A stretch of DNA of 63,399 nucleotides, the filler included, from Craspedostauros australis (lineage: Eukaryota), in NCBI GenBank assembly GCA_030167865.1. It is 11 parts of 11 records of this genome, joined end to end, with 100 filler letters (N's around TTAATTAATTAA, not from the genome) between each part and the next. Parts side by side here need not be neighbours in the genome. Positions count along the whole stretch, not along the records: positions 39,736 to 45,038 come from JALAGF010003242.1; 10 more parts are not named here. One strand, given 5' to 3'. Positions 36,476 to 58,110 of the stretch are shown here, piece after piece. Position 1 is the first letter of the stretch; every line of letters starts with the position of its first letter. Under the pieces are notes generated by a model that was given only the letters and a program-made list of their open reading frames with translations, was not told the DNA's origin and did not search any database. A program made the translations under genes and the position numbers.

Positions 36476-36575
36476 NNNNNNNNNNNNNNNNNNNNNNNNN
36501 NNNNNNNNNNNNNNNNNNNTTAATTAATTAANNNNNNNNNNNNNNNNNNNNNNNNNNNNNNNNNNNNNNNNNNNN

Positions 36576-37990
36576 GGAGTATTGGTGGTAGGCGCGTACA
36601 TGTCGAATAATTCTTGGATGGTAGTGCTGCCACGATCGAACACTGGGACATTTTCGAATTGAACCCCACCATACTGTACCATGTGACTCAACCCTGCCTT
36701 GTATGTAGTCGTGGTCATGAGGAAGGAAACNACACCGGAGAGATCACAGGCACGCACACGGTACTGAAGAACTCGCGGCGGGATGCTTTGGCCGTGGCTC
36801 AACATGACGTAGTTGCGACGCAAAGTGCAAGCCTGGCTGTGCGTGATGATGTCGCGTTTGGACAGCATGGGCACCTTTTGTTCCTCCGATAGTCCATGTG
36901 CGTGCTTAGCAAGAATAGCAGTACACAGCGCATCTGACGCAGACTTGGCCAAAGTGGCTCTCGCTGTTTGGGATGACGTAGATTCTCCGAGCAAGCATAG
37001 GGTGTAGAGATTGGATGCCAACATCGTTGGAGGAAGTTCCACATTGCCACGTACGTATGCAACCACCTGTTCCATCTGACAAGTTGGCACGTCCTCTTCT
37101 GGAAGCAGGACAGTCCAAAGTGCAGATGATACGACACTCCACATCTGTTTGATGTAGCTCCAGATGGTCCGATCGTGCCTGCCTGTGAGAACAAACCCTT
37201 TTTTCGGCATCAGCAGCAACAGTTTTGGATCTAGGTTAGACCCAAGCGCCGACATCGCACGAACGATGGCACCACGCCTCCAGCTCTCCTCCTCCTGCAG
37301 ATCACACCCGAGCTTGCCGCCCCTCCTGCCCCAGCCGGCGCGCATCTGTTCCTCCTCATCGTCAACGAACGTGCTGTCGCTGTCAATAGAGGGATCTGCG
37401 TACCCCCCAGCAACAACAGTGTTGCAACGCTGGGGAAGCCTCCCTGGTGGGGTAGGCTTCACAGGGGGTGCAACATCAGCTGCAGCAGGCAGGGAGGGCG
37501 CGTTCACGATAACGCTCACTGTAGCCCCATCGCCGACACCTCGTCCCTCCGATCGCACCTTGACGTTGGAGTCATCAAAGACGCCTCCATTGTCATCGAG
37601 GATGTGAACGAACACATGCAGCTCGCGAGCGTGCGCATGCGTGCCGTTCGGGACGAGGTTGCCATCCGCTGCATGCATCGGCTTCACATCGATCACTCGC
37701 GTGATGGTGGTCGGCTTCCTCAACGCAGCGGACGGCTTGTCAGGCAACAGTTGTTCCGCAGTAGGCAGCAAATCCCCCTTCGAATCGACAGGAGGAGCAG
37801 ACACAGGGTGAGCGCGAGGTTTCTTACTGGGGGAGGGGTTACCATCCTTGGAGAGGGCCTTGGCGGTGGTAGAGAAAGGCATGATGCAGTTGTTTCTGTG
37901 GAGTAGTGTGGTTTGCTGGTTGGATGTGACGAACTGCACTGGTGTGAGACGAAGTGACGAACGGAGAGCATGCAATGATAGGTGGGCCAT
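36576..37990 (-). CDS. Unknown protein, 3' truncated by gap (copy 1)
   Basis: Long ORF nearly identical to 38331-39635, with many differences at third codon positions. Confidence 0.55.
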
Positions 37991-38330
37991 TCAGCAGCAA
38001 CAACAACAACAACAACTACTGCTACTACTACTACTACTACTCTGACGAGAACGGGCATTGAGCGATAGGGCGAGTGTGCATGGCATTGGCGAGGAAAGTT
38101 GTGAAATGGAGCGAACGTGTGGCGCGAATTTGCGAAATGATGGAGATGATGTGTTTTGTGTCATGTGTTTTGTGTCATGTGTTTTGTGACGAGCAGAATG
38201 TGGAATCATGTGCCACATGCTAACGTGTAANNNNNNNNNNNNNNNNNNNNNNNNNNNNNNNNNNNNNNNNNNNNTTAATTAATTAANNNNNNNNNNNNNN
38301 NNNNNNNNNNNNNNNNNNNNNNNNNNNNNN

Positions 38331-39635
38331 GGAGTATTGGTGGTAGGCGCGTACATGTCGAATAATTCTTGGATGGTAGTGCTGCCACGATCGAACACTG
38401 GGACATTTTCGAATTGAACCCCACCATACTGTACCATGTGACTCAACCCTGCCTTGTATGTAGTCGTGGTCATGAGGAAGGAAACCACACCGGAGAGATC
38501 ACAGGCACGCACACGGTACTGAAGAACTCGCGGCGGGATGCTTTGGCCGTGGCTCAACATGACGTAGTTGCGACGCAAAGTNNNNGCCTGGCTGTGCGTG
38601 ATGATGTCGCGTTTGGACAGCATGCGCACCTTTTGTTCCTCCGATAGTCCATGTGCGTGCTTAGCAAGAATTGCAGTACACAGTGCATCTGACGCAGACT
38701 TGGCCAAAGTGGCTCTCGCGGTGTGTGATGACGTAGATTCTCCGAGCAAGCATAGGGTGTAGAGGTTAGATGCTAACATCGTTGGAGGAACCTCCATGTT
38801 GGCACGTACGTAAGCAACCACCTGTTCCATTTGACGAGTTGGCACATCCTCTTCTGGAAGCAGGACCGTCCAAAGTGCAGATGATACGACACTCCACATC
38901 TGTTTGATGTAGCTCCAGATGGTCCGATCGTGCCTGCCTGTGAGAACGAACCCTTTTTTCGGCATCAGCAGCAACAGTTTTGGATCTAGGTTAGACCCAA
39001 GCGCCGCCATCGCACGAACGATGGCACCACGCCTCCAGCTCTCCTCCTCCTCCAGATCACACCCGAGCTTGCCGCCCCTCCTGCCCCAGCCGGCGCGCGT
39101 CTGTTCCTCCTCATCATCAACGAACGTGCTGTCGCTGTCAACAGAGGGATCTGCGTACCCCCCAGCAACAACAGTGTTGCAACGCCGGGGAAGCCTCCCT
39201 GGTGGGGTAGGCTTGACAGGCGGAGCAACATCAGCTGCAGCAGGCAGGGGTGGCGCGTTCACGACAACGCTCACCACTGTTCCATCGCCGACACCTCGTC
39301 CCTCAGATCGCACGTTGACGTTGGAGTCGTCGAAGACGCCTCCTTTGTCATCGAGGATGTGAACGAACACATGCAGCTCGCGAGCGTGCGCATGCGTGCC
39401 GTTCGGGACGAGGTTGCCATCCGCTGCATGCATCGGCTTCACATCGATCACTCGCGTGATGGTGCTCGGCTTCCTCAACGCAGCGGACGGCTTGTCAGGC
39501 AACAGTTGTTCCGCAGTAGGCAGCAAGCCCCCCTTCGAATCGACAGGAGGGGCAGACACAGGGTGAGCGCGAGGTTTCTTACTGGGGGAGGGGTTGCCAT
39601 CCTTGGAGAGGGCCTTGGCGGTGGTAGAGAAAGGC
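38331..39635 (-). CDS. Unknown protein, truncated by gaps on both sides (copy 2)
   Basis: Near-identical paralog or allele of 36576-37990. Both start after a gap with the same GGAGTATTGG. Confidence 0.55.
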
Positions 39636-39753
39636 NNNNNNNNNNNNNNNNNNNNNNNNNNNNNNNNNNNNNNNNNNNNTTAATTAATTAANNNNNNNNN
39701 NNNNNNNNNNNNNNNNNNNNNNNNNNNNNNNNNNNTGGAGGGAAACTTTCCCC

Positions 39754-39870
39754 TGGTACTGGAGCTACGCAAACCCTACGCCCTTTTCTGACAGCAACCC
39801 AACAAAAGGGCCCCCTCCTATGGTACTTGGGCTACGCAAACCCTACGACCCTTTTCCAGGGCAACCCACA
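39754..39870 (+). repeat. Two direct repeats 67 bp apart (TGGTACT..GCTACGCAAACCCTACG.CCCTTTT...GCAACCCA), possibly part of an LTR
   Basis: Copies start at 39754 and 39821, just upstream of the long ORF. Confidence 0.7.
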
Positions 39871-40109
39871 CAGGGTGTCACACAAACAAGAATAATTGCA
39901 CTAATCTCATAATCCGCACGTTTCTTCACCATCTACCAGTATTCTAAATTGACTACTTGTGGAACAGAAGACTCTCGTCCGGANNNNNNNNNNNNNNNNN
40001 NNNNNNNNNNNNACAGCTAAAGAACAGCCAACAAGACAACAGCCATTACGTTTGGGCTCTATTAGATTAACAGTCGCAAAAGATTGTCAAGCTCTTAGAC
40101 CTCTACAAG

Positions 40110-43100
40110 ATGACCGTCACCCAACGCCTTCAGGTCTCCAACCGGCCACCTCCCAAGAGGAGCCCAGGAGACAGGACCCTAGCCTTCGAGACCGTCCCCT
40201 TGGACCCGAAGGACCCAAGCCTCTCTGCCATCCTTGATGGCACACCAGGCTACCCAACGACTGGGCCATCTTCGCTCTCCTTCGTGGACATCGGAGATAG
40301 CTTCATCGAGGTCACTTTCCGACACCCCATCATCGTAGATGCATGGAACCGAAAGGAAAGAACCAACGAAACCGAAATCGTGCGCCACGTCCACAAGACT
40401 ACCTGGAACGCGTTCACGGAACTCAAACAGGAGTTCCGGATCAGCATCGAAACCGCCATGATCTTTGATCTCTTTCCAGCCAAGACCCTCGCNNNNNNNN
40501 NNNNNNNNNNCCAACTGCTGATCACCATCCATGAAGAAGCCACCGACATGAACCCGGCATTAATCATGTTCAACCTCAAGCACCCGGACGACGTGGCAAG
40601 GAACTACGAGACAGGACTCCTCATCTACCACATCGGAGAATGGGTCAGATCCATCGAAATTGAGGATGAATCCACTCTCAAATCCACCCTTGACACGATG
40701 TTCACCGACACGGACACCACCGCCAAAGCCATGGCAGACTTCTGCCGTTCCGAACGATGCGGCAAACGCCACCACAACAAAGCGTGGTTGGAGGCCATCG
40801 GAGAACATAAGAAGGCACTCTCCAACGCATCCGCGACCAGCGTCTCATCTGGGTCAGAAGCATCTACCCGTAGAACCAGACGCGACAACGACAGCCACCA
40901 CGGAGGAACTCCATCTGGGTTCTCCCTCATGATCGGTGGGAACACCCCGCACCGTACCCCACCCGACTTCCCGAACGAAACCCAACTCTCCAGCATCGCC
41001 AAGCACGGATCACCAAACACGTCCCCAGCGGCCATCGACACCCACGGTACCATCCCAACCAACGAGGGTACCGATCCAGGCACCGACTACAACCAACGCC
41101 CTGGTAACGACGACACCGCAGAAGCATCCGCCAGTCACGGCCCCACAGGAAGGAACAGGCTGTTCCCCAACATGGACCCAGCAACGATCGGCAATTTCGA
41201 CCGTAACCCAACTGGCGCCAAAGCAGTAACCTTCACCCCAGAACGCACCCCAGGCACCCTCCCCGACGAAACCCAACTCTCTGGTATCGCTGAGCGTGGA
41301 TCCATGACGACATCCCCAACAGCAACCGATGCCTGCAGCGACAACCCAAATGCTGCAGGTACCAGCCCCAGCAACGACAACGACCAGCACCCGGGCACCA
41401 ACGAAACTACCGGACCAACCACCAAATGTGGACCCGATGGAAGGATCAGAATGTCCCCCAACGTTAGCCCCACGACCATTGACGGTCACGGTCGCAGACC
41501 ACCTGAAGCCAAGGCAGTAACCTTCGCCCCTGGGACGACTACCAGAGACCCAGGAGACACTGCCACATCTCGGATGACCCACCAGGAGAAAGGTGGGAAC
41601 CGTCCAGCAAGCAACCGAAGCTCATGGGACCATCATGGTACCATGGGCAACCCACCACCTCACGGTATGGCCAGCTACCATAACCACGACGGACGCGAAC
41701 CAACGATCCGAAACCCAACCGCCAACACAGGAGCGAACCATGGAACAGATCATCCACGTCACCAAGACCCTGGACCCTATGGTAACCATGATCACACCAA
41801 CGATGGACCCCATGGATACCCAACCCGCATGGAGAACTCCCACGCACATGGGAACCCATTCCCGGCGTACCCGCATTCCCATCCAGGAGGATTTCCGCCC
41901 ATTGGAATCCCTGCCCACATGGGATACCCCCCAAACGGAAATGTAGGCTACCCGACAGCCCTGAGAGCTTTCATGCCTGTTGGAATTCCCCAACCTGGGC
42001 ACCCCCCGAGACCACCAGGACACAGGAACCAAGCAACAGGTCATGGCGCGAACCGAAGGGGACCAGACCCACACGTCTTAGGTCCTGACACCCACCGTGG
42101 GCACCACGCATTCGGGTACGCACCCCATCAGGGAGGCACCCATGGTGATACCCCAACTCCTCCCGCCAAGCTGACGAAGCGTCATTCCAACCCGAATGCC
42201 ACAAGCACCGGCCCCAGCAATGACCACGACCAGCACACCATCACCAACAAAGATACTGGATCAACCAACGAGCGCGGACCCGACGGAAGGAGCGGACCGT
42301 TCCCTGACGTAAACCCCGCTACTATTGGCGGACAGGATCGCAGGCCACCCGACGCCAAGGCGGCGGCAACCTTCGCCCCCAAGACAACCCCCAGGGACCC
42401 AGGAGACCCCGCCGGACCCCGCGCGACCCGCCCAGAGAGCGGCGAGAACCGCCCCGCGGACAACCAGAACTCATGGAACCATCATGGTACCATGGGTAAC
42501 CCGCTACCCCATGGGATGGCCAACAACCATGGCAACGGCAGACGCAAACTGACGAACCAAAACCCAACTGCGAACGCAGGCATGAACCATGGAACAGGAC
42601 CAACACACCGCCAATTTCCCATATCCTACAGCATGTACGGTTACGACAACGAAGGATACCATGGATACCCACCTAACATGGGGCCTCCTCACGCATATGG
42701 CCAACCACACATGGCGTACGCGCAACCGCACCCAGGAGGATTCCCACCTTTTGGAGTCCCTGTCCACATGGTATACGTGCCAAATGGAAGTGGAGACAAC
42801 CAAACAGCTCCAGGTGCTTTTGCACCAATTGGAAGCCTCCAACCAGGGTGCCCTCCAAGACCAACTGGATACGGACACCAGGCAACCGACCGTGGAACCC
42901 ACCATGGAGGGCCAGGGCTGCACATTGAGGCTCCTGGTACTTGCCATGAGCAACATGTGCCTGGGTACTCTTGCCATCAGGAAGCCAACCATGGTGAAAC
43001 CCCATCCGCATCAGCCAAGCTGGCGAAACGGCCACCCATCCTGGACTCCATCAGGTTCACGAGCGATGCAGTTTCCTTTCAAGTGGTGAACCACCAAACC

Positions 43101-45038
43101 CGGGCAAGCGGAACCGTCCTCGACACGGTCTCGACGGAACATCAGGAATCGTTCCCCACGTCAGGAACAGGAAGACAGTGTCTAATGCCTGATGAAAATA
43201 TGATCATCAACCTGGAGATGAGGGATGCATTGATGACATTCGACGTGATTCCCATCATGAAAGATGACGAGGACCTCCCTCCGCATGACATCACCCCAAA
43301 ACAGGAATGGAACCCACCAGACCACCAGGGTGGACACGTATGCAACATACCCAGGAGTTGCTACCTCACCGAGGACCTGGATGGAGGCGACAAGACCTTC
43401 GATTGGAGTGGTTTCCATGATGACCAACACGACCTTTCGACAGCGACCCCAGACAAGAATGGTCTGGCCCCGACGCATGATGATGCCAGAACCCCACCGC
43501 ATGCAGCACCCACCATCGAAGAGGAACCTCCCGCGACAGGGGAGCTCACAAGGACAACCGGCTCCATCGAACCAATGGCACAAAAGCCTCATGAGAAGGA
43601 AGACTCCGATCCAGGGTCATCGTACCTTCTTTGTTCATCGGGACCACCATCCTACCAACAAATGGATGACGGCGCTGAAGAAAGGGGAGGGAATGGGAGG
43701 AACATGCAAGAGAAGCGACCCCCCTCTACCATCAACGCCAGAAAGGACATCCTTTGGAAGATCAATTCTCACAGGACGAACCGATCTAAACCCAAGACCA
43801 TCTGCAAACGACAGGACACTGTGGAGAACCCCACGCATGGATCGAACCTGGGCGCTGCTAGGAGTGCCACAAAGTCAAAAACCGGGCTACGACATACACT
43901 GATGGACCTCGCACTACCCATTGATGGACCAGCAATCATGATGAGAGACAACAAGGCAATGGTACTGAACACCACGGCCCCTCCATCGCCCTTGAAGAAG
44001 AAACACTGCTCCTCGGCATTCCACCAGATTCGAGAGTGCATCGCCGCAGGTATCATTGTACTCTGCTGCATTGCTTCAATCAACACCACCTCTGACATGC
44101 ACACCAAACCACTCTCCAAAAACCCCTTCCGCCACATCGCATCGAAGACGGTCCTCAGGAACTTAATATACGAACCAGGGCCCCACCACGAAATCGTATC
44201 CCCCGCGAAACCGCGCGCCAAGGTCACCAGAGCGGAAGACGACCCTGACCTGCCAACCGATCGACCAGAGGCGCAATCATGCCACAGCAAGAAACGCACC
44301 GATACAAGAAACATCAATGTCATCCGGCACCAACAAACACGCATGGACATCAGCCCATCGTCAACTACCCTCTGGCTCACGACAACTCGACGGGAGCCGA
44401 CCCCTCTAGAGAGGTCCCGGAGAAGGCCACCTAGACCCGTCACACCGATCGCAATCACGTTGGCCGAATCCAGCCGGCAGACGCCACCAAATTTCGATGT
44501 CGCATGCGAGACGCCCGATATCCTTGCCACGACTACTGATCGCAATCCCAGTAACGGATCACTTGACAATGTTTGTCACCAACCCATCGACGCATCTCCG
44601 ACGGATCTCGCAACAGAACCCAGCCCACCGCCAGACATCAATTTTTCATTGACATCGGAAAGCTTGACGCCTCGGTTTTCTGTCACGCTGGAACACGTTC
44701 TCAGCTCTCAGGTGCTGTACCCTGCAGGGAAGAAGGGAACCTTCCATGGAATTGTCACAGGCTACGATGGTCACAGGGTCTGTATCTTCTGTACCAAGGG
44801 CAACAGGAAGGTCCACACTGACACCATGTCCTATGCAGACAGCCAATCCGTATTCCCACTCTCCCTCCACGAATATCCCGATGAAGACCTCAAGGCTACA
44901 GAGGTCCTCAGCATCGCAATCGCGGATGGACAGTGGTCCTACCCAGCTGACGACGGCGCATGGGCAGAGGAACTCAGCATGGATAGATCCACGAATCAGA
45001 GACCATCAACCTGCCACTTCTTCAGTTTGAGGAAGAAC
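40110..45038 (+). mobile_element. Long ORF derived from a CoDi-type copia element, with internal duplications and RNase H remnant but no recognisable integrase or RT core
   Basis: LRHTLMDLALPIDGPAIMMRDNKAMVLNTT..S.LKKKH...FHQIRECIAAGII...DMHTKPL is a copia RNase H C-terminus. DALMTF...LPPHDITPKQEWNP resembles the CoDi post-protease segment. The ORF stays open up to the gap. Confidence 0.75.
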
Positions 45039-45138
45039 NNNNNNNNNNNNNNNNNNNNNNNNNNNNNNNNNNNNNNNNNNNNTTAATTAATTAANNNNNN
45101 NNNNNNNNNNNNNNNNNNNNNNNNNNNNNNNNNNNNNN

Positions 45139-46140
45139 TGAATCCTCACGGATCACATAGGAAAGTGGAGTGTCGAGTGCACCATGTGTGTTCTCCAAGT
45201 AGTTCTGAATGTCTTCGAGGCTATCACGGACACGGTCCACTTTGACCAGTCGTTCTGGCATGTCCATCTCGGTTTCCTTCTTGATGCGTTGTTCCTCGAG
45301 GAAGAGCTCCCATAGCGCAACGAGGCGATCCATGGGCGCCTCTGCCGCCGTGAAAGGACGTTGAATGCGTTGGAAGTGGAATCGTGCATAGCGAAGTTGG
45401 CGCAGCTTTGTTTCATGAACCCAACCAACGCTGATGCCTGGATCCTTAATTTGCGGTGGTATATTGCCCTTGGCGCCTGCCTTGTATGCGGGGTTTTCAA
45501 TGAACCCGCTACCGTCACAGATGCGCTTGCACAGGGCAGTAACGCCTTCGTCAGTGATGGAGAGAAAATCGTCGAATTTGGTCAAGCCTTGATCCTCCAA
45601 AGCATCGACGATGTCATCATCGGGAAAGCTGAGTACGTTCTTGCAATAGTCACGTATCTCGTTGACGTTGGGATTTGCAGCGGCTGCCATGGTGTTAATG
45701 TTCGTGTATGATGTTGTTGATGAGGATGAGAGGGAAGTAGTGAAGGGAGAGAGAGATTGTGTTGTCAAGAAAATCACACTGGGACATGGTGTGTTTTCGA
45801 CGTAAAAAAAGTGTTTCAACGTGTGTTTTCGTGGTGCCAACCCGCGATGAGAAACACAGACCGGGCAACAAGGCACGCGATCTTTTCGCTGATAACAGCG
45901 TGTGTCTCAGTAGGGATTTCCGTGTAACCTACGGTCGGTGCGTCCACCAGTGTCATCCACACCACGCAATGCGAACGGTGGGATTGCATCCCGTTGACGC
46001 CGGTCACTCTGCGTCAACACACCATGGTCAAAGAGGATGCAGCACATTACAAGCAGTGCCGGCTTGGTGACGGTCCTCCCTCGGAGCGGGGTCCCAGTAT
46101 TATCGTCGCCTCTTCAGGCGGTCCCTGCACGCTCGCACAT
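45139..46140 (-). mobile_element. 5' end of a CoDi-type copia: LTR, primer-binding site and gag N-terminus (ATG at 45690)
   Basis: Gag-like QGL..FDDF...G.I.NP...DPG..V...HE.KL...GA..TPLSYVIR. The minus strand reads ...GAGACACA (LTR end, 45901) then CGCTGTTATCAGC (PBS-like). The outer LTR edge is approximate. Confidence 0.75.
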
Positions 46141-48850: not shown

Positions 48851-51601
48851 GTTGCTTTGCCTTGTCTTGCCTTGCTTCTGTTGTCTTGTATTGTCTAATA
48901 TAATATAATAGAATAGTATGCAATAGGATGCTGTTACGTATGTGTTGCCTTTGGTGTTGTCTTTGGTGGACGATCTAGCCGTATGCTATGCTCTCGAGTA
49001 TGATATGATATTCGACAATAATACCTTGGAATGCACAGTATTGGTCGGAAGTCCAGCCCACGCTGCGTTGCGTTGCTTTGTGTCGCGTTGGAGTAGAATG
49101 AAGATGACTGTGGCGCTGCAGCAAACAATGTTCAAGGGACAGTGCTTCGACCGAACCTGATACCCTCAAGACTTTGATGCCTCGTGCTTCTGGATTGAGG
49201 ATCAATCGCCCGAATGCACAAGGACGATGGGATGTATTCTGATGTCCTTGTGTGCTGTTCTTGGGTTTGGAGGCGGCATACCTCCGCGCACAGGTGCGCG
49301 TCGTGATCTGCAATTTCATCTCCTTGGTTGCGATGGTGTCGTGTTGTTGGTAGTGCGTTGGAGGAACAAAACAACGCCCATTCCCGCCAGCAAGCGGCTG
49401 ATACGCCCTGGTTTACAGGGGGCGGTCATGGTGATAATCCTCTGATGCCGCGGTTCTTGGCGACCACTGTTTCGTGTTGTTTCGCGCAACCTCTGGCTCT
49501 CTCGTTCTTGCGGCCTTATTGTTCCATGTTCGACGTCAGAACGCCGTGGTTGCGCACACAGATGTGGGTTGGTGTTGGCGTTGTTCCGTTTCCTCTCCCT
49601 TGTGCCAGTTCGCGCAGAGTTGCGAGTACGACTATTAGTGACCAGACACGTCATGAATAGATGGTCATAGTGGGTGTTCCACGATGATCCACCGCCGCAT
49701 GTGCTGCAATTGCGAATCGGAAATGGAGATACGAGGTAGCACAGCAGAACACAGATCTCAAGCGCTCGGTACTGAAATCAAGCACCAGATTAAATATGAA
49801 GCCAGCAGCAGGTACAAGGGCGCAAGTCAGCACGGTCATCTGACTCAATCGACACTTCTCCCGGGTGGTGGCCAGATGGGTGATTCTGTGTCACTGTTTC
49901 GCCGAAGAACATGACAATGGCAGAATTCGAAGTCGTCGACGTACTCTGAATGCCACACAAGGCAGGACTTCGTGGACTACCATTTACGAACGGCACCACC
50001 CACTGCCCAAATTGTTCTCATCCGGTGTTCTCGCCACTTCTCCCCACACCTCCAGTGGAGGTGGTTGTAAGGGTCATAATTTCATAATCTGGGCCTCTCG
50101 ACCAATCATATCGCTCCATTTAGGGCACAAGATACCTTTCGGCTCCTCGTTGAATTGGGGGTCAACGTCGACATAACGTCAATCGAAATAATTATGAACT
50201 CATTGTCCGCGAATATGAACGCTCCTCGGAGACCGTTCATAATTTCATAATCTCTCTGACGAGTCGTGGTAGTCCAAAATTCGTTCTCAACGGCTACATC
50301 GGAGCATAACTTTGTGCTCATACCAGATTGATCCGATGTGCTCTACTGCAAATTGATTATTCGTTCCCACCCGTTTCATCGCAACTCTCTGTTGCAGTTC
50401 AACTCCTTCTTTACATGCACCTAGTGTAACTCTGCATTTATCATCTGATGAACTCCAGCGGATCATATCTTCCCACCATCATCGCCAGCGCCAGGCTGCC
50501 TTGATTGCCATTATCCTTGTCGTTCTTGAGCATCTTTCTGCACAGCAGCACCTCCTCATGTGTGCTGTGGCACACTGCATCCTTGACACCATGCCTACAA
50601 GTGTGCGAAGGGGTTGGTACCTCAGCTCCGGCATCTTCCAACATCAAGCGCTATCTTTCTGGTCTTTGATTTGAGAGTATTGTGACTCCATGGAGTTCTA
50701 CAACTTCATTGGACTCACCAGGCCATCGTTCGATCGATCGGCTGAAGTGCTAGAGCCTGGCATCGAAGCGTTGCCCGTTGATCCGCGAGCCACGGCGCCA
50801 CCATGACCATCTGATATTCGCTGTTGTAAGTTTGACTGCATCAATGTCACTGCCATTGCAATGAAGTATCTGGCTTCCAAGTCAGAATTGAAGAACCATT
50901 TCTGGTAGGATCTGCCTTCATTGGAAGGTCGGAAGAGATCTTGGAGGATGTGGAGAGCAATGGACATGTCAGAGGCCGAAGTTGAGGCAATGGAAGAGCA
51001 CTCTCACGAAACAGGGACTATGGATGACAATTGTAACCTGCCATACGAAGCGATGGATCTTAAGAAGAAAGCAAAGGAAGATGTGGAATGCATCAACGAT
51101 GCCCAGAAGCAAAGAAGGTGCAAGTGGGAAGCTACAATGGCCATTTGTATCATCAAAGCAATGACAATGAGACGATAGGCAAGCAAACGATTGCGCTGAA
51201 TGCTGCGATGGTTGAGATAGGTACGTGGAGCATTCAATGAATGAAGGAGTGGACACCAGCAGCACAGCCAATGGAGAAAGGAAGACAGAGGGAAGCAGAA
51301 AAGCGACGACGCTTGGAGAGTAGATTGGAGATGAACTGCAGATGGCGAGGAGCAACACATACGTACATACAAACACATTCATCTGGTATATGGCAGTTGA
51401 AAACTGCACTTGGGCAAGACACATGCATTTGCGAATGTGTGAAGCAGCAAGAGATGTGCAAAACTGAAGCTGTGGATGGGTCAGCATACAGCCCCATTCA
51501 GNNNNNNNNNNNNNNNNNNNNNNNNNNNNNNNNNNNNNNNNNNNNTTAATTAATTAANNNNNNNNNNNNNNNNNNNNNNNNNNNNNNNNNNNNNNNNNNN
51601 N

Positions 51602-54271
51602 TACCAACATCTTGAACCATTGCCTGGCGCTCTGCACAAGTCCGTAGATTGGCTTGTGTAGGGTCAGGGCTTCGTCTGGTTGATGGTCCATCCCATTGGG
51701 ACAGTTCATGTAGATCTCCTCGTCGAGGTCTCCATGTAGGAATGCCGTTACGACATCGACGAGTGCGCAGTCCATCTTCTTGATNAGCATGATCACCATC
51801 ATGACCCGATAGGTCACGTCATGGATGACGGGTGAGTAGTGCTCTTGGAAGTCTACTCCTGCGACTTGTGAATAGCCACATGCAACGAGCCGTGCTCGAT
51901 GTGTGCCGTCGCGTTTCAGCTTGAAGACCCATTTGCACTTGCAGCATCTGCGGCTGTGTGGGATGGCGTCTTGTTTGATCTTGCTGTACACCTTGTGTGT
52001 ATCTGTGGAGTCGAACTCCTTCTTGATGGCTGCTCGATATCCCTTTCGATGGATGGGATCTGGATGGTTGAAGGCTCCATCGAATGTTGTTGGTTCGATG
52101 TGCTTCTCTGGTTCCTTGTTCTCGTCCTGCATCGACAGTCCGATGTCGATCGCTGGTGACTTGGTGATGATTGTGTTCATCCCGTACAATCCTGTTGTGC
52201 TATGATGGGTGATTTCGATCTCTTTATCCTCGTCTACGACTTCTTTGTCATCTGTAGTTTCGTTGTTGGATTTGTCGGTTATCTCATCGCTGAGTTCATC
52301 ACTATCGTCATTGGATGATGATTCGCTCTCATAGCCTTCCTCCTTTCGACCTCGTTCGTTGAAGTCTGCAAGCTCACGCAGAGCGCTAGGAATGCTCTTC
52401 CCTGTAGTCGGCTTGGGATTAGCTTCTCCCTTCCTGCCTCGTGCTTCATGACATCGGATTCTCTCCTTTCTAGCTATGTCACGCTTGTTTGGTTTGCTTG
52501 GTGGAGGTCTCGATGGTGTGTCAGGTGTAGACCTCGCCGGTGTGTTCGGAGGAGTGACGCCTGTGTCATCGTCAGCTTCATCGCCAGATGGCATGATCTC
52601 GTCATCCTCATGATTGGATTCGCTCCAATCTTCCTCGTCGGTATGGATTAGTTGAGTCACTACTCTATCGTCCTCATCATCCTCATCGTCGCTATCTGAT
52701 AGGATGTGATACCTGTTGCTGTCAGCGAAAGATACTCTCTTCGCTTCTGATGTTCGACGCATTGCTGTCCTTGGCATTGCTCCCTTCCGTCCAATGGTTG
52801 TGAAGCCATCTGCGTCTGTCGTTCCTGCTTCACTGGATATGTTCGGTGCTGGTGCCCAGCCACAGAACTGTCCGTATGATTGGTTGAGCCACTTGATATC
52901 CCGAGAACAGACCAGTGATTTGGTCGATGGTCTGTACATGTTGTAGACCCCCGATGCGTGTTGGTGTGCATATCCAATGAACACCATCTCTTCTCCTCTA
53001 TTCTTGAGTTTGGCGGTAATCCCGCCGTAGGTAGTCTTCACAACACCCACCTCTCCGAATGTGCGGAGTGCATCCGCATATGGTGGATCGTTGCCGAAGA
53101 ATTGTCGATGTGGTGACTCCTTTTGGTTCTTCGCTACAGTGATGTTGGCAATGGCAGTGACAGTGCTTGCAGCTGCTGCCCACAGGCCATGTCTATACTC
53201 TTTGTCGAGTTGTGCTCCGTTGAGCATGGAACGGATCTTGGTGTAGAGGTACGCGAACTTGCGTTCCACTCTGCCGTTCTGTTGTGGCGTGTTCGATGCC
53301 GTGAATTCGAATTTCATGTTGAGTCCTGCATCGATGAGAGTATCTTGCGTGGATTTGTTCTCTCCGCTGTTGTCTCCTTGGAAGATGATCTGTTGGTCAC
53401 CAGTCTGTGACTTGATCGTTTGGATGAATCGTTTGATGTACCCTGGTTGATCACTTTTGTTCTTGAGAAAGAAACTCCAGCAGTGATCTGTGCAGTCGTC
53501 CACAATCAGAGTCCAGTAGCGTTTATCTCCAAAGCTTATGTGTTTAGTGTAGCTAATGTCAATGAAGAGCCGTTCGCCATGGCGAGTTGCTCTTGGAATC
53601 GTTGCCTTTGGGATGTTCTTCACTCTTGCGTTCACGACCGCGCAGTCGCGACATACCGGCATCTCGCCGATGATCTTCCATCCGTACTGGGCGGCTGTCC
53701 GCTTCATGGTCTCGAGTGACGCGTGGCCGAGCATTCGATGCAAGTTCATCGCGCTGATCTCCTTGGATGGATTCTTGACGATAGCTGTGGAAGCCTTGTC
53801 GTTGTTCGTTGGCATGATAGGATGCATCTGCACTCCCGTGATGAATCCGTTGGATGTGGGGAAGACTCGATCGAACACGATCTTTGTTCTGGATTCGTTG
53901 ATGATGTCCATCAGAATGCCGTTGTTACCGAGCTGGTAACCGTTGTACAGAGCCTTGTTCGTGGAGAAAAGGTTCACCGCCATTTTTGGTGTGTACTTCA
54001 CATCATCGAGCCGGATGATGTGGCCAGTGTTGTCTTGTTGCTTGACCTTCAAGCGAATGGATCCCATCTTGGGAGAATCTAGCTTTGTGCTGTCTCCCAC
54101 TTGGACGAAGGACTTGATGTTCCGCACATTGAAGAGAGCGGCGTCTGAGTTGACGATGTGACACGAAGCTCCACTGTCGGCAAGCCAGGTGTCCTTGTTG
54201 ACCTTGTCCTTGTATCTGGTGCTCAGCTCGTGGAACTGCTCCACGGCGGCTGCTGCCATGTCGTTGTCATA
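51602..54271 (-). mobile_element. Ty1/copia pol (protease, integrase, partial RT), open frame
   Basis: WLADSGASCH, HRMLGH...CRDC, FIDI/DNSGE/NGRVER integrase triad, KWVFK.K.DG..RARLVA.G, DV.TAFL.G.L.EEIYM and YGL.QS.RQW. Confidence 0.97.
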
Positions 54272-54351
54272 TGTTGGCAAGTTCCGCGCACGGTAACCTA
54301 CGATCGTGGAAGATGGTGTTGGTTGATAGTCGTTCGTTTGCTATTTCATTA
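54272..54351 (+). mobile_element. Start of an LTR-like repeat abutting the copia gag/protease region, cut by gap
   Basis: TGTTGGCAAGTTCCGC...TTTGCTATTTCATTA is close to 57415-57494. Confidence 0.75.
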
Positions 54352-54451
54352 NNNNNNNNNNNNNNNNNNNNNNNNNNNNNNNNNNNNNNNNNNNNTTAAT
54401 TAATTAANNNNNNNNNNNNNNNNNNNNNNNNNNNNNNNNNNNNNNNNNNNN

Positions 54452-55986
54452 CGAGTATCATCTTCATATGTTCCACCACTTGTGTGGTATGAAGCTCGTG
54501 AAGATTCGCCCCTAGCCACTCGTCCGTCGCGTAGGCCATCTCCCTTGGAAACCCCCGGTTGAGGCCAATCTTTGACATCATCGTCTTCCAGACTGGCTTC
54601 ATAATCCTGTTGCATTGTTCCCTCGATAGTTGTGCCACTGGCAGCACATATTCCAGCTTTTTCATCAGAACTGTCCGTATCGCCGTCTCCGCATCTTCCT
54701 GTCGCATACGCCACGACTTCACATTCTCNNNNNNNNNNNNNNNNNNNNNNNNNNNNNNNNNNNNNNNNNNNNNNNNNNNNNNNNNNNNNNNNNNNNNNNN
54801 NCCTAATGTTTCGAATGCTTGCTCGCTTCCGCTTCTTGGCATCGCTTGCGGTACTCCCGTAGTCCCCTTCATCATCAGCTTGGCTGGCGTCTCTGTGTCC
54901 GTCGCATATCGCCACGTGCCGTCGCTGTTCCACTTGAAATCGACAGCCCACCACATACATTTCTCCACCACCAGTGCGCCGCCTGTCGCTCTTGCCAGGA
55001 TCTCCCACGATTGTACACTCCGCTGCATGCGCTGGATCGTTTGTTGTACGTCCTCGCCTTCCCGTGCGTTTACCACCAAATCCGTGTCATCCACAAATGC
55101 ATACCCCACCATCTCCACGTCTTCTCCGCTCGCCGCTGTTCGGAAGTTGGCTGTGTGCCCTTCTCGTTTCATGATTTCCAGTACTGGCGATGAGATCACT
55201 GCCCATATCACCGGCCCTGCTCCATTCCCTTGGTAAATACCCTGCATTGGTACCACCCATCGCTTGCCTCCGTACGTGAGTCGAGATTCGCCGTACGCAG
55301 TCCTGATGTAGTGCTCAAGTTGCTGGAGTGTGCTGAACATACACACCACTTCTGATTGCGCTATCCCTTGCCGTTGCAGTCCCAATGATGCCACCGTGTG
55401 CACGATTCGATCGTAGCAGCTCTTGAGATCATTTGTGCAAAGCACTGTTGGCACTCGCACCTGTCTGGCCCAGTCCAACGTGAGCTGCTTGTTCAGCGCA
55501 TGGTCGATTGCTCGATGCCGTTTGCGGCTGCCATATTGTTCCTCAGCAAACCCGTTTTGCTGTTCCGCCTGATGCGCAGCTTTGCGCCCGATGGCCTTGT
55601 TCGCAAAATTGAAATCCGCTTCGAATAGCACGATGGTCCTCAGCTTGTCGACTCTGAAGCTGTTCGCTTTCTTCATCAGCTCCACGTCGGTGCCTTGTCG
55701 CCATCGCTGGTACGAGTAGCCGCTTACCATCGCGATCGAAGTCATGCTTGCTTCAAACTCCGAATTCCTCCGATGGTGCGCTATAGCTTTGAAATGGCCA
55801 AAATGCAGCCCCGATGGTCCTGCCGACNTGTCCTCCTTGGCTCTTTTCCATCCTTGTTGGAACTCCTTCGTTGTCATTCCTGCTGGTATGCTCCGGCTTG
55901 CTACCGATTTCAGCCCTTGTAGGAGCTTCGCGGCGCCTTCATCAACCCATGGTCGTGGTGCGTAGCTTCCGTTGAGCGTTTGCTCC
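54452..55986 (-). mobile_element. Non-LTR retrotransposon (LINE) reverse transcriptase fragment, diatom Ambal-like
   Basis: GPSGLHFGHFKA, KLRTIVLFEADFN, QYGSRK, DLKSCYDRI, GIYQGNGAGP and AFVDD. Bounded by gaps. The clade assignment is tentative. Confidence 0.9.
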
Positions 55987-56085
55987 NNNNNNNNNNNNNN
56001 NNNNNNNNNNNNNNNNNNNNNNNNNNNNNNTTAATTAATTAANNNNNNNNNNNNNNNNNNNNNNNNNNNNNNNNNNNNNNNNNNN

Positions 56086-57414: not shown

Positions 57415-58110
57415 TGTTGGCAAGTTCCGCTCACGGAAGCCTACCATCGTGGAAGATGGTATTGGTTGATAGTTGGTCTGTTTGCTATTTCATTAGTTGA
57501 GCACTCCAATCCTCTTGGTGTATGCCCGTTCTCTTGCCCGATGCTCTTGGCGCTTGAATCTGTTTTGTAGATTCGGTCTCCGACTATGAGTCGGTACGCG
57601 AGATGCTCTCTCGCTCCTCTCTGTATTCTCTCTGTCTGTTTCAGCATCGTGTGCTTTGTGCTACACGATACTCTGTGTTCGATGCATGCTCTGCATTCGA
57701 CACTTCATTCATTCACTATTGGTTCCTACTCCATGAGTACTTACCATTTGAACTTCACCTCCTGTATCCATGATCTTGATGCCCTTCGGTCATCCGATCT
57801 TTACCTTCTGCTTCTGACATGGAGACAGATGTCGACGTGGTGACATGATGGCATCCTGTCAACGTCAGTAGGCCTCCTTCTGCTCTCCAGATGCCACGTT
57901 CCATCAATGATGCGATGGTCTGTCAGATGATATTGTCATCTGAGGTTTATTTGGGAGGTGCCTCGAGATTCGCTTGGTACCGTACGTTGCCATTGATGGA
58001 TGGACGGACGATATTTCCAATTCTCTCAGAAATCGTTGATTGCAAATTTCCTCCAGAAATCTTGCTCTTTTTCGTGTGTTCCATTTCCGCTGTAATTCTG
58101 ACGAATCACA
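57415..58110 (+). mobile_element. Solo-LTR-like element (TG...CA, about 696 bp)
   Basis: Boundaries are defined by homology with 32114-32811 and 54272. No clean 5-bp target-site duplication. Confidence 0.7.

Follow-up and report, generated by a model that had tools for sequence, protein, structure and literature searches.

A 63,399-nucleotide stretch of DNA from Craspedostauros australis (GenBank assembly GCA_030167865.1), hereafter the window, contains an open reading frame (ORF) at 40110–45038 (+) whose translation runs for 1643 codons without a stop. Comparison with the rest of the assembly (65.9 Mb, 6734 contigs) indicates that this ORF belongs to one copy of a dispersed, non-autonomous family of Ty1/copia long terminal repeat (LTR) retrotransposons, hereafter the deleted family, which appears to be mobilised in trans by a related autonomous family, A (the parent family). 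The reading that we favour, with a probability of about 0.58, is that of a mobile element selected in cis for translation of its RNA up to the 3' end, its protein being mostly filler. The first-pass annotation of this ORF, made from the sequence alone, had hesitated between a domesticated gene and a coding non-autonomous element. The latter is retained: the element is multi-copy, has LTRs, a primer binding site (PBS), a polypurine tract (PPT) and target site duplications (TSDs), encodes neither reverse transcriptase (RT) nor integrase, and its internal region is one ORF. A domesticated gene would be expected at a single fixed locus, devoid of LTR machinery and with a ratio of nonsynonymous to synonymous change (dN/dS, or omega) far below 1; none of these traits is found, omega being near 1.

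The window consists of contigs strung together with N-TTAATTAATTAA-N spacers, and adjacent contigs are not known to be neighbours in the genome. The ORF lies on contig C3242 (G000:C3242, 5303 bp; window 39736–45038), which ends at such a spacer, so that the frame is cut at 45038. It remains open in contig C3194 (100% identical to the window over 1093 bp) up to that contig's own end, and in the copy C4466 it extends 549 codons beyond the cut, into the 3' LTR; from the overlap of copies, the whole ORF would reach about 2190 codons. As first annotated, it is interrupted only by a small N patch (18 nt, 40493–40510), the length of which fits seven residues found at the same place in a sister copy. 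The other five frames over the same interval contain 26–64 stops. The proposal that the low T content of the strand suppresses stops fails: base composition predicts 51 stops over the ORF, where none is present, and no frame exceeds 484 codons in 500 dinucleotide-Markov simulations, which excludes composition as the cause. The reported lack of integrase and RT is confirmed, no Pfam family matching the window ORF, two other deleted copies or the N- and C-domains, and all junctions are in frame relative to the parent.

The evidence for selection comes from the changes that distinguish the copies, which were analysed with a 64-state codon model (a 35% coverage filter excluded contigs C430 and C4748) and with a context-matched count of 427 singleton changes (C430 included, C4748 left out). 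On the trees of four regions, the codon model expects 18.5 stops in the deleted family and 0 are observed (summed 2dL, twice the log-likelihood difference, 30.4); the terminal branches are likewise free of stops (12.4 expected). Of the singleton changes, 145 are synonymous (129 expected), 281 are missense (288 expected) and 1 is a stop, where 9.6 are expected (P = 7e-4). This single stop, in C430, lies 20 codons upstream of the point at which the parent stops; C430 also has a 2-nt deletion just before the PPT, and the indels of C4748 lie in its LTR part only. The first-pass annotation took frameshifted copies and a dN/dS near 1 as signs against selection. A stop or frameshift disrupts none of the 11 rows aligned to the window ORF; in the parent, 6 of 14 gag rows are disrupted and, among 17 pol rows examined, 9 of the 15 that have data. 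The four small indels in the ORF are all of 3 or 6 nt, whereas 1-nt indels occur in 7 of 9 LTR rows and all five deletions in A-type LTRs would break a frame.

A dN/dS near 1 does apply to missense changes, although not to nonsense ones. Omega ranges from 0.58 to 1.04 in the deleted family under the 64-state model and is 0.89 [0.73–1.11] for the body by the context-aware singleton count, and in the RNase H region it is 0.53 versus 0.047 to 0.15 in the parent. Under the 64-state model, most classes in the parent have an omega of 0.31–0.52; the N-domain gives 0.93 on its short internal branches. Taken together, these data suggest that amino acids drift nearly neutrally while nonsense and frameshift changes are purged, and the earlier proposal that selection keeps the ORF open is upheld in this restricted form.

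The copies behave as those of a mobile element. Twelve contigs hold the body of the deleted family, some of which may represent one locus or haplotypes (as C3194 and the window), and three more (C430, C6338 and C4748) hold 3' ends. Each junction-spanning 40-mer is present in 2–7 of the 12 deleted-type contigs and in none of eight parent stretches, and the insertion flanks are distinct between deleted copies. The check for LTRs and TSDs proposed at first annotation is positive: the family has its own U3 type (16 exact deleted-type LTR starts versus 90 of A type), and a 5-bp TSD borders all four complete solo LTRs of this type. Complete LTRs are about 614 bp long, with an 8-bp terminal inverted repeat and TA...TA ends instead of TG...CA. 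The LTR part present in the window is 97% identical to the 5' LTR of C6683 and 85% identical overall to the 3' LTR of C4466. A purine tract abuts the 3' LTR in C4466 and C6338. The PBS sequence has 51 exact matches genome-wide and points to half-tRNA priming from tRNA-Asn; half-tRNA primers are reported in other copia lineages, namely half tRNA-Met or half tRNA-Ile in plants (PMC6317226). One PBS match, on the opposite strand (C5417:2903–2917), precedes a different copia gag, and more than one family may use this primer. Contigs C5391 and C2745 hold flanks of deleted-type LTRs, one 5' and the other 3', that have the same 5-mer, and may be the two ends of one insertion. L042 (C6075) is a copy of a diverged subfamily, about 70% identical to both others, with both LTRs and many stops; it has no match to the post-protease piece, perhaps owing to another internal deletion.

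The 5' ends of the copies differ. In C5417 and C4677, the Gag N-terminus is the family's own (about 70% identical to that of A), whereas in the window and in C5292 the 5' end of A is joined at two different points, both in frame. C6683 carries a deleted-type LTR followed by an A-type gag up to the contig end, so its membership cannot be assigned. C4726 is open over its 291 codons, but a nested LTR belonging to another family interrupts it and likewise interrupts C5417 at its 3' end; these two nested insertions argue that the loci are not protected by the host. The nested LTR, which starts with TG and belongs to another copia family, is seen at window 54272–54335 and 57415–57478, L041:1021–1525 and L153:854–1366, and a pol piece of that family at window 51554–54280 (-) is open for 908 codons. 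This last piece contradicts the initial remark that nearby copia relics are full of stops; the relics in question moreover lie on other spacer-joined contigs.

Searches of the genome DNA with the 5' and 3' parts of the ORF gave 50 and 45 matches (best 40 candidates scored each), most of which belong to family A. Its copies C6239, C2559, C4488, C5896 and C6154 carry a weak rve followed by RVT_2 (in parent copies, rve at E 0.013–0.033, below the Pfam cut-off, and RVT_2 at E 2.5e-24 and 8.4e-21). The order protease–integrase–RT–RNase H and the copia-type RT place the parent in Ty1/copia, and its RNase H region has 355 protein matches, RVT_2 being present in all 120 of those listed. The parent element is estimated at about 11.8 kb from overlapping copies. 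Its tail after RNase H, about 890 aa long where that of homologues has a median of 29.5 and never exceeds 142 (100 of 120 with the end motif found), includes a conserved beta-rich domain of about 120 aa (omega 0.21). This extension is seen at L045:4761–9398 (-) (C4488) and also in C6239, C3455 and C1739. Consequently, the read-on of about 290 aa past the usual copia pol stop noted at first annotation does exist but is inherited from the parent rather than a novelty of this ORF, the end of which lies beyond 45038. The 'small C-terminal domain' is likewise inherited and is not C-terminal, as the frame runs on in C4466, and the globular N-terminus and Gly/Pro/His region are the parent's Gag N-terminus with the Gly/Pro/His region tandemly duplicated. 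Among ten parent-type 3' ends, nine stop 30 codons before the PPT; in the tenth, another stop lies 3 codons before it. In C4466 and C6338, the parent's stop position is read as Trp and the frame continues for at least 99 codons into U3. A coding role for the LTR frame was considered and rejected, since the ratio of synonymous to nonsynonymous changes is the same in all three frames and stops occur. In A-type LTRs (L045:4136–4659 (-) and others), the frame is open for 41–210 codons past the parent's stop, with no sign of selection.

The anatomy of the element is given in the table. Identity to A copies is 89–98% at the nucleotide level over 40036–40935 and drops to about 81% near the crossover. 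J1 is common to four deleted contigs and absent from the eight parent stretches (two N-free parent copies were used for the junction). In the RNase H remnant, the first acidic residue is absent and the second replaced, these being what we take to be catalytic residues. The rearrangements, namely three large and two smaller deletions, one duplication and two distinct captures at the 5' end, are all in frame. The microhomologies at J1 and J3 would fit template switching. The full deleted element is estimated at about 7.5 kb.

Table. Parts of the deleted element and the spacer that cuts it, in window coordinates
Feature	Position	Strand	Remarks
3' part of 5' LTR	39736..40064	+	U3 of deleted-family type (two ~50-bp repeats), then R/U5 common with the autonomous family; ends CTCTATTA
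PBS, 14 nt	40065..40078	+	complementary to anticodon arm of host tRNA-Asn(GTT)
Gag N-terminus taken from family A	40110..41225	+	~240-aa helical domain and low-complexity linker; no homologue found at E 0.001
Crossover from captured A-type 5' end into old deleted-family body	41226..41530	+	leaves in-frame 297-bp duplication, 65% identical
Gly/Pro/His-rich disordered Gag region, tandem duplicate	41342..43030	+	period 846 bp, 71% identical; single copy in parent
Deletion junction J1	43089..43101	+	~10-nt microhomology; in frame; removes 1494 bp (Gag core and protease motif)
Post-protease fragment of parent polyprotein	43101..43430	+	76–80% nt identity
Junction J2 and piece of integrase–RT linker	43430..43793	+	integrase core gone; ~1776 bp measured across Ns, breakpoint not exact
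Junction J3, then RNase H remnant	43793..44170	+	9–10-nt microhomology; removes 1836 bp (RT and RNase H start) relative to parent
Inherited post-RNase H extension	44171..45038	+	linker with two further in-frame deletions relative to parent, then ~120-aa beta-rich domain from near 44712; cut by assembly gap
Assembly spacer (N run, TTAATTAATTAA, N run)	45039..45138		element continues in other contigs

Mobilisation in trans by family A is suggested by the LTR ends, R/U5, PBS and PPT common to both families and by the 5' captures. Taken as a whole, the history and lifecycle of the element can be pictured as follows. An autonomous lineage sister to family A would have undergone microhomology-bounded deletions, giving an enzyme-less element that kept LTRs, PBS and PPT. 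Family A would supply the particles, its Gag, RT and integrase being borrowed, and its 5' end would have been swapped in at least twice by template switching. To survive or be packaged, the RNA of the element would need ribosomes to reach a point at most a few hundred bases from its 3' end: an early stop would leave a multi-kb 3' untranslated region and expose the RNA to nonsense-mediated decay or, alternatively, would uncouple it from ribosome-linked delivery to particles. Lineages with early stops would then fail to copy themselves. Selection would act on the element's own RNA, because only a cis effect would purge stops from a passenger whose protein drifts. The parent stop located 30 codons before the PPT, and its reading as Trp in C4466 and C6338, are consistent with a rule of translation to the 3' end, and Ty1 RNA is reported to be localised co-translationally (PMC4974528). 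We tentatively put forward a wider version of this rule, against which the odds stand: throughout the lineage, genomic RNA would be read almost to its 3' end, which would explain both the 2200-codon filler ORF and the ~890-aa tail of the parent, while the helper-matching 5' cassette would be renewed by recombination. Such elements would form a kind of LTR parasite favoured because it can be translated and not for its protein.

Several points weigh against selection for translation as such. No contig spans both LTRs of any deleted copy, and contigs may be haplotypes or collapsed copies. The codon models are our own scripts, and their trees ignore recombination, which violates them. By the singleton method, parent omega is 0.70–0.75 in three (disordered) regions, overlapping the interval of the deleted family, so that only RNase H and the post-protease piece show clear relaxation. 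Residual constraint is found in the post-protease fragment (omega 0.44, 2dL 6.5) and in the first Gly/Pro/His copy, whose omega departs from 1 (2dL 8.1), and the average omega would be no different if a short motif late in the ORF were essential. Plant non-coding LARDs (large retrotransposon derivatives) and TRIMs (terminal-repeat retrotransposons in miniature) amplify without ORFs, so translation need not be a universal requirement, and mini-Ty1 is reported to tolerate internal deletions as large as 5 kb (PMC4974528).

The fusion protein itself might work in cis. Its N-domain and Gly/Pro/His region would tether both nascent chain and mRNA to helper Gag particles, and a motif late in the frame, either the ~120-aa domain or a terminal helix common with the parent, would be needed as well, which would keep the entire frame open even though most residues of the linkers drift. 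We consider this foremost alternative unlikely, as no region is strongly constrained (omega of the C-domain 0.62, 2dL 2.4, and 0.71 [0.33–1.63]; 0.72 for the N-domain of the window versus C5292, with 8 synonymous and 15 nonsynonymous changes), even though the point estimates of omega are mostly below 1 and the C-domain and last helix still align well with the parent. The retained parts are exactly the non-enzymatic, family-specific ones, but the Gag core needed for co-assembly is deleted. The N-domain has been recaptured in frame, twice, from the dominant helper family; these captures could nonetheless serve RNA packaging signals, which in Ty1 reportedly lie within the first 380–580 nt (PMC4974528). 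A precedent for such a protein is reported in the mouse element IAP 1-delta-1, discussed below.

An absence of current selection, the deletions being recent, the copies young or mere assembly consensuses, and the frame inherited from the autonomous ancestor and kept by luck, seems quite improbable and is already largely refuted by the stop counts under both methods. It is true that the stem branch to the deleted family has a parent-like omega (0.05–0.43), which puts most of the divergence from A before the deletions, so an old age of the deletions is unsupported; the body would derive from an autonomous lineage, sister to A, that was not detected in the assembly, with deletions late on that branch. 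The DNA searches of the genome returned no closer autonomous donor of this body among the 40 best candidates scored per search. Copies with identical junctions nevertheless differ by 4–15%, hundreds of changes should have yielded 10–18 stops, and near-neutral missense change is incompatible with an autonomous ancestor. Short-read contigs can collapse copies, and near-identical contig pairs exist in the window, but collapse removes private changes and cannot yield neutral missense without nonsense. Ty1 p22 and Fv1 are Gag-like restraint factors, and a host-level use of this kind (a domesticated or dominant-negative Gag-like product restraining family A), which could account for the stop-free terminal branches and for deleted copies being more intact than parent copies, is very improbable given dispersed copies with LTR, PBS, PPT and TSDs, two copies broken by nested insertions, near-neutral missense change and the deletion of the capsid-like core that such factors use.

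For the N-terminal 240 aa, neither a word-based search against longer proteins nor one over 1.84 billion representatives gave a homologue at E 0.001; Atlas matches at 0.92 to BTB-related fungal clusters have only 138–145 features in common and are taken as weak. The structure model of this domain is helical but weak (pLDDT, the predicted local distance difference test score, 55; best Z 4.3), with no viral match at E 0.001. The C-domain has no homologue among 8000 scored candidates, and its Atlas matches are unnamed, with recognition below threshold. A Tudor or chromo identity was considered for it because related polyproteins carry such domains before RT, and finds no support (weak model, pLDDT 49, best Z 3.2). 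Among related copia polyproteins, P0035, P0043, P0056, P0064, P0070 and P0079 have a chromodomain or a PTM/DIR17 Tudor domain upstream of RT. The Gag core deleted by J1 does have homologues in related polyproteins (E down to 4e-10).

Elsewhere in the window, near-identical contigs at 36524–38230 and 38343–39635 carry the same unknown ORF and are probably haplotypes assembled apart. The start of a gag-like ORF at 45151–45906 (-) resembles L040:1383–2651 (-) and has no Pfam match, and a fragment at 54396–56030 (-) is presumably related to the RT of non-LTR retrotransposons by motif likeness.

A long open frame and a conserved protein, which are usually read together, are here separate. If the proposed reading is true, this family would amount to a natural experiment in which selection in cis favours the translation of a retroelement RNA in itself; how nonsense-mediated decay or packaging during translation shapes non-autonomous elements could then be tested in an alga. 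It also serves as a warning for annotation: a 2000-codon ORF of retroelement remnants may be neither gene nor domestication. No literature on an enzyme-less, ORF-keeping LTR element in diatoms was found in a search that left most subscription literature outside.

The parent shares the copia domain order with the diatom Ty1/copia elements CoDi, some families of which are also reported without TG...CA ends (PMC2806351). Reported CoDi are 5.2–8.1 kb long (PMC2806351), whereas the parent is estimated at about 11.8 kb and has the ~890-aa tail. Five homologues that were looked up bear uninformative names. IAP 1-delta-1, a mouse non-autonomous endogenous retrovirus, likewise has an in-frame gag-pol fusion produced by internal deletion and needs helper proteins, and its product is reported to aid retrotransposition in cis (PMC6466679, PMC7411935). 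It differs in being retrovirus-derived and in having one 1.9-kb deletion, where the copia element described here combines three large deletions with two small ones, a duplication and 5' swaps. The present element has furthermore lost the Gag core, and the support for its case comes from evolution (purged nonsense and nearly neutral missense changes) and not from experiments. TR-GAGs of plants are reported as non-autonomous LTR elements with a single ORF (PMC4350172). They are shorter than 4 kb and encode a GAG precursor, whereas this element, estimated at about 7.5 kb, has pol remnants and no intact GAG, J1 having removed the Gag core. BARE-2 keeps pol, and we know of no derivative of the LARD, TRIM, BARE-2 or Morgane type that keeps a 2000-codon enzyme-less frame. 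Like these four, which are described as deletion derivatives mobilised in trans whose LTRs and internal parts are reshuffled by recombination (PMC13570524), the deleted family appears to depend on a helper and to exchange parts with it. Unlike LARDs, TRIMs and Morgane, which are non-coding or have decayed ORFs, it has an internal region that is one ORF.

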